Assembly (NCBI RefSeq): GCF_057098645.1
Contig: NZ_JBXSPU010000002.1
Length of the DNA: 64,000 nt
Source of the DNA: a plasmid
Direction: 5' to 3' (one strand)
Position 1 is the stretch's first letter. Every line of letters begins with the position of its first letter. Shown here in pieces: positions 59,011 through 62,000 of this stretch. The position numbers were made by a program.

Positions 59011-62000
59011 TTATAACATTTCGTACGGTTGGAAAAATGTTACTAAATGCCCGTCAGGCAGGGAGGCCGATATGCCCGTTGACTTTCTGACCACTGAGCA
59101 GACTGAAAGCTATGGCAGATTCACCGGTGAACCGGATGAGCTTCAGCTGGCACGATATTTTCACCTTGATGAAGCAGACAAGGAATTTATCGGAAAAAGC
59201 AGAGGTGATCACAACCGTCTGGGCATTGCCCTGCAAATTGGATGTGTCCGTTTTCTGGGCACCTTCCTCACCGATATGAATCATATTCCTTCCGGCGTCC
59301 GGCATTTTACCGCCAGACAGCTCGGGATTCGTGATATCACCGTTCTTGCAGAATACGGTCAGAGGGAAAATACCCGCCGTGAGCATGCAGCGCTGATACG
59401 TCAGCACTATCAGTATCGTGAATTTGCCTGGCCCTGGACATTTCGCCTTACCCGTCTTTTATATACCCGGAGCTGGATAAGCAACGAACGTCCTGGCCTG
59501 CTTTTCGATCTGGCGACAGGGTGGCTTATGCAACATCGTATTACTGAGATTCTACGTCAGTACTTTATAAGGCACTGTTGCAAATAGTCGGTGGTGATAA
59601 ACTTATCATCCCCTTTTGCTGATGGAGCTGCACATGAACCCATTCAAAGGCCGGCATTTTCAGCGTGACATCATTCTGTGGGCCGTACGCTGGTACTGCA
59701 AATACGGCATCAGTTACCGTGAGCTGCAGGAGATGCTGGCTGAACGCGGAGTGAATGTCGATCACTCCACGATTTACCGCTGGGTTCAGCGTTATGCGCC
59801 TGAAATGGAAAAACGGCTGCGCTGGTACTGGCGTAACCCTTCCGATCTTTGCCCGTGGCACATGGATGAAACCTACGTGAAGGTCAATGGCCGCTGGGCG
59901 TATCTGTACCGGGCCGTCGACAGCCGGGGCCGCACTGTCGATTTTTATCTCTCCTCCCGTCGTAACAGCAAAGCTGCATACCGGTTTCTGGGTAAAATCC
60001 TCAACAACGTGAAGAAGTGGCAGATCCCGCGATTCATCAACACGGATAAAGCGCCCGCCTATGGTCGCGCGCTTGCTCTGCTCAAACGCGAAGGCCGGTG
60101 CCCGTCTGACGTTGAACACCGACAGATTAAGTACCGGAACAACGTGATTGAATGCGATCATGGCAAACTGAAACGGATAATCAACGCCACGCTGGGATTT
60201 AAATCCATGAAGACGGCTTACGCCACCATCAAAGGTATTGAGGTGATGCGTGCACTACGCAAAGGCCAGGCCTCAGCATTTTATTATGGTGATCCCCTGG
60301 GCGAAATGCGCCTGGTAAGCAGAGTTTTTGAAATGTAAGGCCTTTGAATAAGACAAAAGGCTGCCTCATCGCTAACTTTGCAACAGTGCCAGCTGGACCG
60401 CCTCGGTCGTGATCTTCGTCATCTCATTAATACAGTGCACGACCTGACCGCGAGGGGGACCGGTCTGAAAGTGCTGACCGGTCACGGGGCGACTATCGAC
60501 ACAACAACGGCCGCTGGCAAGCTTGTCTTCGGTATCTTTGCCGCACTGGCGGAGTTTGAGCGCGAACTGATTGCTGAAAGAACGACTGCAGGTCTGGCAT
60601 CAGCAAGAGCCCGTGGGCGGAACGGCGGCCGACCTTATAAAATGACGCCAGTCAAACTGCGACTGGCAATGGCATCAATGGGACAATCAGAAACAAAGGT
60701 CAGTACGCTATGCCAGGAACTTGGGATAACCCGGCAAACTTTGTACAGGCATATTTCCCCTGTTGGTCAACTGCGGGCGGACGGGATCAAGCTGTTCAAC
60801 CGTGGATAATTTGAACGGACGGAAAAATCTGGGGTTCCGGCGTAGTACCCCTATCACCTCCACATTTTTGCAACAGTGCCTTATAAATGGCAGCCTTATG
60901 TTTACTTGCCAAGATGGGCTACCATATGATGTTTTATACTGAGCAATATTAATATTATCTTTAATGGAAAAATTAAGCCCACTAAGTGACCCACTGCTAT
61001 ATGGCTCTATTGTGAAGACGCCTGAGGGTAAAAATTTATACATGGTTGTCCCTATGTCTATTATTGCAAGGTTGACAATATTATTCGTTTTATAAATTTG
61101 AGCGTTTAAAATCACACATCAAAGCAATTAGTCAGGATAAACAACAATACCCAGTGCTTCGAGAATCAGTTCTTGCTGCCAGGCTGCAATTTTGATACCT
61201 GATGTATCGACTTTGCGGGGATCTAAACCGTCGAGTTCGGCGTGGCATAAATTGGCACCCTGTAGGCTAAATTGCCCCCAGACATCTTCGGAAAAAACAC
61301 CTCGACTTAAGTCTGACTCTTTCAGTGATGCACCCGCTAGGTTCGTTCCTATCCAGCGATTTTCAAACAACTCACATTTTTCTAAACAAACCCTCTCCAT
61401 ATTGGCATAGGAAAGATTACATCCAGAAATAAATGCTGAGCAAAAGTACATACGATTACTCACTTGATGGGCAAAGTTTGTTCGGGAAAAGTTGGCACCT
61501 TTTAAATCACACGCACGGAACTCTATACCGTAGCAATTGGCATTACTGAAGTTTGCCATCGCAAGTTGGCATTGTTGGAAACTTGCATCACGAAGATCTG
61601 CGACATCAAAGTGGCAGCCTTCGATATCACCCTGTTCAATGAACTTGCAGTTGACGAATGTCGTATCACGCAAGTTAGCACGTCGAAAGTCGCTGCGAAT
61701 GAATGTGCAAGCGGTGAAGGTGAGATCACTTAAGTCTTTATGTGAAAAGTTGTGGTGCCGATATGTATGATTGTAGGTTTCCATGAGTACTCCTTGTTGA
61801 AAGGAGGGCTAGACTACCATTATACATATGCCAAGACATTAAAATAAAAGCCTGTTACATCAACACATTACAACCCCTCAATTTACCTGTTTTAAGTGGT
61901 CAAATTGGCGCGTAGAGCGCCTATCGCTCTTGCATTGGCACGCGGCCCTGTTGAAAAAAGTTATTCGCTTTAGATAGGGTTAGGAGAGCCGTGCTTCGCC

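Follow-up and report, generated by a model that had tools for sequence, protein, structure and literature searches.

An intact IS26-v1 in the middle of a resistance array

The middle one of the three IS26 copies in the analysed plasmid DNA (the window, a single stretch of 64,000 nucleotides) is, with very high confidence, an intact IS26-v1, the variant whose Tnp26 transposase carries the G184N substitution, and it forms the central element of an IS26-built array carried by an epidemic IncHI1 tet(X4) plasmid; the higher activity ascribed to it is a published property of the variant. The comparisons described below show directly which variant is present, that it is intact, how the array is built and how widespread each of its parts is, and no evidence contradicting the IS26-v1 identification was encountered in this analysis.

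The 14-bp terminal repeat of IS26 (GGCACTGTTGCAAA) matches the 64-kb window seven times, against 0.01 matches expected by chance. Six of these matches pair to delimit three complete IS26 elements of 820 bp, the seventh (60867-60880) being solitary, and a local BLAST of the window returned no IS26 fragments beyond those three copies. Copy 1 (56126-56945, + strand) has perfect 14-bp terminal repeats and a tnp26 coding sequence at 56189-56893 (+) with glycine at codon 184; it is identical over 820/820 bases to the IS26 of an unrelated IncN plasmid, and the protein at its position in an identical public record is the standard transposase WP_001067855.1. Copy 2 (59571-60390, +), for which the earlier note had given the exact ends, is also 820 bp long, is bounded by perfect terminal repeats at 59571-59584 (+) and 60377-60390 (-), and contains a tnp26 gene of 705 bp (59634-60338, +). 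Copy 3 (62338-63157, -) is inverted and encodes a standard Tnp26 (coding sequence 63094-62390, -). Translation yields a Tnp26 of 234 aa from all three copies.

Base by base, copy 2 departs from copy 1 solely by GG>AA at IS positions 613-614 (window 60183-60184), which replaces GGC (Gly) with AAC (Asn) at codon 184 (60183-60185, +), the codon being GGC in copies 1 and 3. The earlier note had read this two-nucleotide change from the peptides HGKLKRIIGATLGFK (GGC, copies 1 and 3) and HGKLKRIINATLGFK (AAC, copy 2) and had proposed an alignment of the copies as a check; the alignment confirms the peptides and the change alike, the transposase genes being not identical and copy 2 differing at codon 184. 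The three copies are not otherwise identical in DNA, because copy 3, compared with copy 1 in the same orientation, shows one differing base, A780G (window 62378), in non-coding DNA 12 bases past the tnp26 stop. Both this base and the inversion of copy 3 relative to copies 1 and 2 had been omitted from the earlier note.

The copy 2 transposase matches the NCBIfam IS6 family model NF033587 with 278 bits, the cutoff being 125, and the motif positions place catalytic D78, D138 and E173 intact, in agreement with the residues given by the laboratory that described the variant (PMC8477213). Residue 184 lies 11 residues past the catalytic E173. The protein at the copy 2 position in the identical record has its own RefSeq accession, WP_001067858.1, separate from the standard one. 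A search of solved structures for the position of residue 184 gave just weak matches to retroviral integrase cores (residues 74-144) and no IS6-family structure that positions this residue relative to DNA. The variant was reportedly named IS26* by Pong et al. in 2019 and is said to have been renamed IS26-v1 by Harmer, Pong and Hall in JAC in 2021.

IS26-v1 is defined by G184N in Tnp26 (PMC11137137, PMC9412624, PMC8477213) and, since its only two changes relative to copy 1 are the defining ones, copy 2 is identified from its sequence as IS26-v1. The same substitution is encoded by IS26-v3, and the differences between variants are described as "one to three nucleotides" (PMC12540391); v1 and not v3 would be the fitting label for an element with just the 613-614 changes. 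As relayed by papers that cite it, the study of Pong, Harmer, Ataide & Hall (2019) attributes to G184N a raised activity of Tnp26 and a raised frequency of cointegrates (PMC9019673, PMC11137137, PMC8477213, PMC12540391). The match to an enhanced-activity variant proposed in the earlier note consequently holds, in that G184N defines IS26-v1 and the papers citing Pong et al. ascribe the activity to it. Specifically, PMC8477213 assigns G184 to a region corresponding to the loop beyond the helix that carries E173, points out that in a related transposase this loop is in contact with the terminal repeat, and proposes tighter binding of the terminal repeat as a putative cause of the higher activity.

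Architecture of the array

The gene order, established from NCBIfam models and the annotation of the identical public record, runs from aadA22/intI1 through copy 1, an interval of 215 bp outside IS26 and Tn2, a Tn2 fragment, a 27-bp orphan stretch, copy 2, the 3' part of a resolvase gene, the lone terminal repeat and qnrS1 to copy 3. Directly to the left of copy 1 (53837-55790) lie the class 1 integron integrase gene intI1, encoding a full-length protein of 337 aa, and the aadA22 cassette; identical records are annotated with an IS1 farther left.

Copies 1 and 2 are directly oriented around 2,625 bp (56946-59570) carrying blaTEM-1. This interval opens with 215 bp of AT-rich DNA (56946-57160), neither IS26 nor Tn2, that extends to the start of a Tn3-type terminal repeat at 57161 and is presumably a remnant of a previous Tn2 insertion site that moved with the fragment. 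The Tn2 fragment itself (57161-59543) was delimited by NCBIfam matches, the annotation of the identical record and the end of Tn2/Tn3 homology; it comprises the 38-bp Tn3-type terminal repeat (57161-57198), blaTEM-1 (57308-58168, -; NCBIfam TEM beta-lactamase, 665 bits, cutoff 625), tnpR (58351-58908, -) and the first ~157 codons of tnpA (59072-59543, +; partial match to Tn3-family transposases). Standard Tn2/Tn3 copies cease matching at window position 59543, and it is at the same position, base 214 of the tnpA query, that the majority of the 4,098 plasmid records covering at least 80% of this query end. Between the truncated tnpA and IS26-v1 lies the 27-bp orphan stretch (59544-59570, the ACTGAGATTCTACGTCAGTACTTTATAA region), which is not Tn2 and for which neither the rest of the window nor the comparison record L003 contains a match.

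On the other side, copies 2 and 3 enclose, in inverted orientation, a segment of 1,947 bp (60391-62337) that holds qnrS1 (61128-61784, -), so that copy 2 does border the qnrS1 segment, as the earlier note had it. The gene matches the NCBIfam QnrS model with 514 bits against a cutoff of 460 and is annotated in the identical record as QnrS1 with 100% identity; the whole 1,947-bp segment occurs in 1,821 plasmid records. Its left part is the remnant of a Tn3-family resolvase gene, cut by IS26-v1 down to its 3' 419 bp (60391-60809, +; weak serine-recombinase matches). The gene is complete (615 bp) in the IncN plasmid pKP2509-4, one of the carriers of the segment, and the window match begins 196 bp into it. 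This truncated resolvase gene differs from the tnpR of Tn2 and is part of the common qnrS1 module.

The solitary repeat (60867-60880, -), an exact 14-bp terminal repeat of the IS26 type, lies a short way downstream of the resolvase gene remnant; its first 30 bases agree with the left end of IS26 at 24 positions, the similarity fading beyond, and the repeat is found at the same place in L003. Because it belongs to a module common to ~1,821 records, it resembles an ancient remnant of an IS26-like end and not a piece of the present array. Its reading as the end of a larger element was rejected, as the sole partner candidate in pKP2509-4 is simply where an ordinary truncated IS26 has its right end. 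The 7 bases TTTATAA precede, in element orientation, both the left end of IS26-v1 (59564-59570) and the solitary repeat (60881-60887). An origin of these flanks as two halves of one insertion fits poorly, given an overlap of 6 bp against the 8 bp of IS26 and a 27-bp orphan with no second copy in the window or in L003; the shared flank was taken as a coincidence and may reflect chance or a preference for AT-rich targets.

The 8-bp flanks of the three copies were compared directly and as reverse complements, and no match emerged for any single copy or any pair. In particular, CTTTATAA and AGCTGGAC, the flanks of copy 2, differ and do not form an 8-bp target duplication. As no such duplication is present at any copy, no transposition event by copy 2 can be reconstructed. 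Missing duplications are usual for IS26 in resistance arrays, where conservative reactions, deletions and recombination generate none or separate the two halves, and the absence is no argument against the IS26 membership of copy 2.

Plasmid family and spread of the variant

The 64-kb window is collinear with positions 129662-65663 of p802A1-191K-tetX4 (CP101801.1), a conjugative IncHI1A plasmid of the MOBH class, with 3 mismatches over 64,000 bases, located at window positions 37621 and 55598 and, the remaining one, within 1-29662. Judged by this collinearity, the window comes from an epidemic plasmid of the IncHI1 tet(X4) type. Its first ~50 kb hold IncHI1 transfer and backbone functions (trhH, traG-like, traI, traD, umuDC-like, H-NS). 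A total of 92 plasmid records, spread over Escherichia, Citrobacter, Klebsiella and Morganella, hold the full-length 7-kb array with its three IS copies at 100% identity or close to it. In a 2023 study of IncHI1 tet(X4) plasmids (PMC10248516) the array is written ...Tn2-IS26-orf4-IS15DI-Tn2-IS26..., a label which implies that its middle IS had already been recognised as a variant and which suggests that IS26-v1 probably corresponds to the ISFinder entry IS15DI.

The abundance of the G184N form was estimated with a query of 50 bases centred on the AA pair, in which both flanks are shorter than the 28-base seed of megablast, so that standard IS26 is unable to match. This AA signature was retrieved from 4,173 of 72,556 plasmid records (9,020 places) and from 1,678 of 5,426 complete E. 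coli genomes (5,441 places). The GG counterpart query found 16,460 places in 3,141 of the complete E. coli genomes, from which it follows that the G184N form accounts for about one in four IS26 copies in E. coli. A published plasmid set contains 6,266 standard and 1,385 v1 proteins, with IS26 and IS26-v1 frequently sharing a replicon and the earliest v1 isolate dated 1990 (PMC11137137). Conversely, the A780G signature of copy 3 is rare, being present in 84 of 72,556 plasmid records; conjugative Escherichia plasmids predominate among them, some plasmids of ~48 kb are included, and the base is a useful lineage marker.

With a variant this common, its occurrence here is a matter of routine annotation. 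Literature and databases already contain the variant, the phenotype reported for it, its abundance and the array on this plasmid, none of which is new.

Origin of copy 2 and alternative explanations

The two junctions of IS26-v1 are unequally distributed: the left one, from the Tn2 fragment and its 27 bp into IS26-v1, occurs in 276 plasmid records and the right one, from IS26-v1 into the truncated resolvase gene, in 93, indicating that IS26-v1 travelled more widely with its Tn2 side. In the simplest reading, IS26-v1 came with the Tn2/blaTEM-1 fragment and was afterwards joined, inside the resolvase gene, to the qnrS1 module in the lineage leading to these IncHI1 plasmids. Since IS26-v1 arrived together with the Tn2 fragment, the presence of copy 2 most likely reflects ancestry. 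Moreover, the rare A780G of copy 3 indicates that the three copies are separate in origin and have not been homogenised.

Repeats of 820 bp are hard to assemble from short reads, in which copies may collapse or mix, and the two-base difference might accordingly be an error of sequencing or assembly, or a private mutation of one molecule. No tool result favours this explanation, and its probability is close to nil: the array is at or near identity in 92 independent plasmid records of several genera, the AA signature is carried by the 4,173 plasmid records and 1,678 E. coli genomes counted above, and the resulting protein, WP_001067858.1, has an accession to itself. A sequencing error as the source of the AA pair is refuted outright by its recurrence in independent complete assemblies. 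A different route to the same two bases would be homologous recombination or gene conversion that copied the AA patch into a resident standard IS26, with no insertion of IS26-v1 at this place. IS26 and IS26-v1 often reside on one replicon (PMC11137137) and hybrid variants such as IS26-v1-delta-v2 are documented (PMC9602291), but conversion is a highly improbable source of copy 2. Among the matches listed, the sole record spanning the left-junction query in one piece (H76) is 100% identical to it and hence carries AA, a GG version of this junction was not seen among them, and a second v1 copy able to act as donor is absent from the window.

The explanation that weighs most concurs with the preferred one on the identity of copy 2 and denies the local importance of a higher activity: the G184N copy would be a marker of ancestry that hitch-hiked with Tn2/blaTEM-1 and had no functional effect on the evolution of the array or the plasmid. 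We give it an even chance of being right. It is in line with a left junction about three times as widespread as the right one, with the lack of target duplications around every copy, with the separate origins and missing homogenisation that A780G points to, and with the near-complete identity of the array across its 92 records, which speaks for stability and not for ongoing rearrangement. Against it, the resolvase gene is cut exactly at the end of IS26-v1, a sign that this element or a parent copy once acted there, and on other plasmids cointegrate formation has been attributed preferentially to IS26-v1 copies (PMC9019673). The identification of copy 2 as an intact IS26-v1 is common to both explanations.

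Putative mechanism and significance

The higher activity of copy 2 and the mechanism behind it would follow from what is published on the variant. IS26, with its DDE transposase Tnp26, is described in the literature as moving only through the formation of cointegrates, for which it uses either a replicative copy-in route, producing an 8-bp target duplication, or a targeted conservative route, in which two molecules are joined at existing IS26 copies and no duplication arises. G184N raises the frequency of cointegrates, according to papers citing the original study, and may do so through the stronger binding of the terminal repeat put forward by the Hall laboratory. In the array, the directly oriented copies 1 and 2 constitute a pseudo-compound transposon, from which a translocatable unit of 3,445 bp (one IS plus the 2,625 bp with blaTEM-1) could be released; the inverted copies 2 and 3 around the qnrS1 segment permit no such release.

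That a hyperactive copy 2 drives rearrangement in the IncHI1 tet(X4) plasmid family is an unlikely, though not negligible, extension of this scheme. If it were true, copy 2 would preferentially start the release of the blaTEM-1 unit and the cointegrate fusions with other plasmids, and its position would help to explain the reported modular variants of the region; a known property would thereby be extended to one plasmid lineage, with no new kind of element involved. In practical terms, the distinction between IS26-v1 and IS26 inside the array offers natural markers for reconstructing the assembly of the resistance region, and annotation as IS26-v1 flags the copy that would be likeliest to start further cointegrate events. 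The significance of the finding is limited to correct annotation, and no open question becomes more testable through it.

Comparison with known systems

Copies 1 and 2 share with the IS26 pseudo-compound transposons and translocatable units of Harmer & Hall the direct-orientation layout; the structure differs from them in that the bounding IS diverge by two bases and no target duplication flanks the whole. In contrast, the qnrS1 segment does not fit the pseudo-compound layout, since copies 2 and 3, which bound it, lie in inverted orientation. The multidrug resistance region of epidemic IncHI1 tet(X4) plasmids has all three IS copies in common with the window and is distinguished from it by the three single-base mismatches. 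At the level of the element, copy 2 shares with IS26-v1 the length of 820 bp, the 14-bp terminal repeats, the 234-aa Tnp26 and GG>AA at 613-614, with no differences detected between the two. Standard IS26 (WP_001067855.1) agrees with copy 2 in 818 of 820 bases, in its ends, in the catalytic residues and in the mechanism of movement, and differs from it by the glycine at residue 184 and, as related by the papers that cite the original work, by a lower frequency of cointegrate formation.
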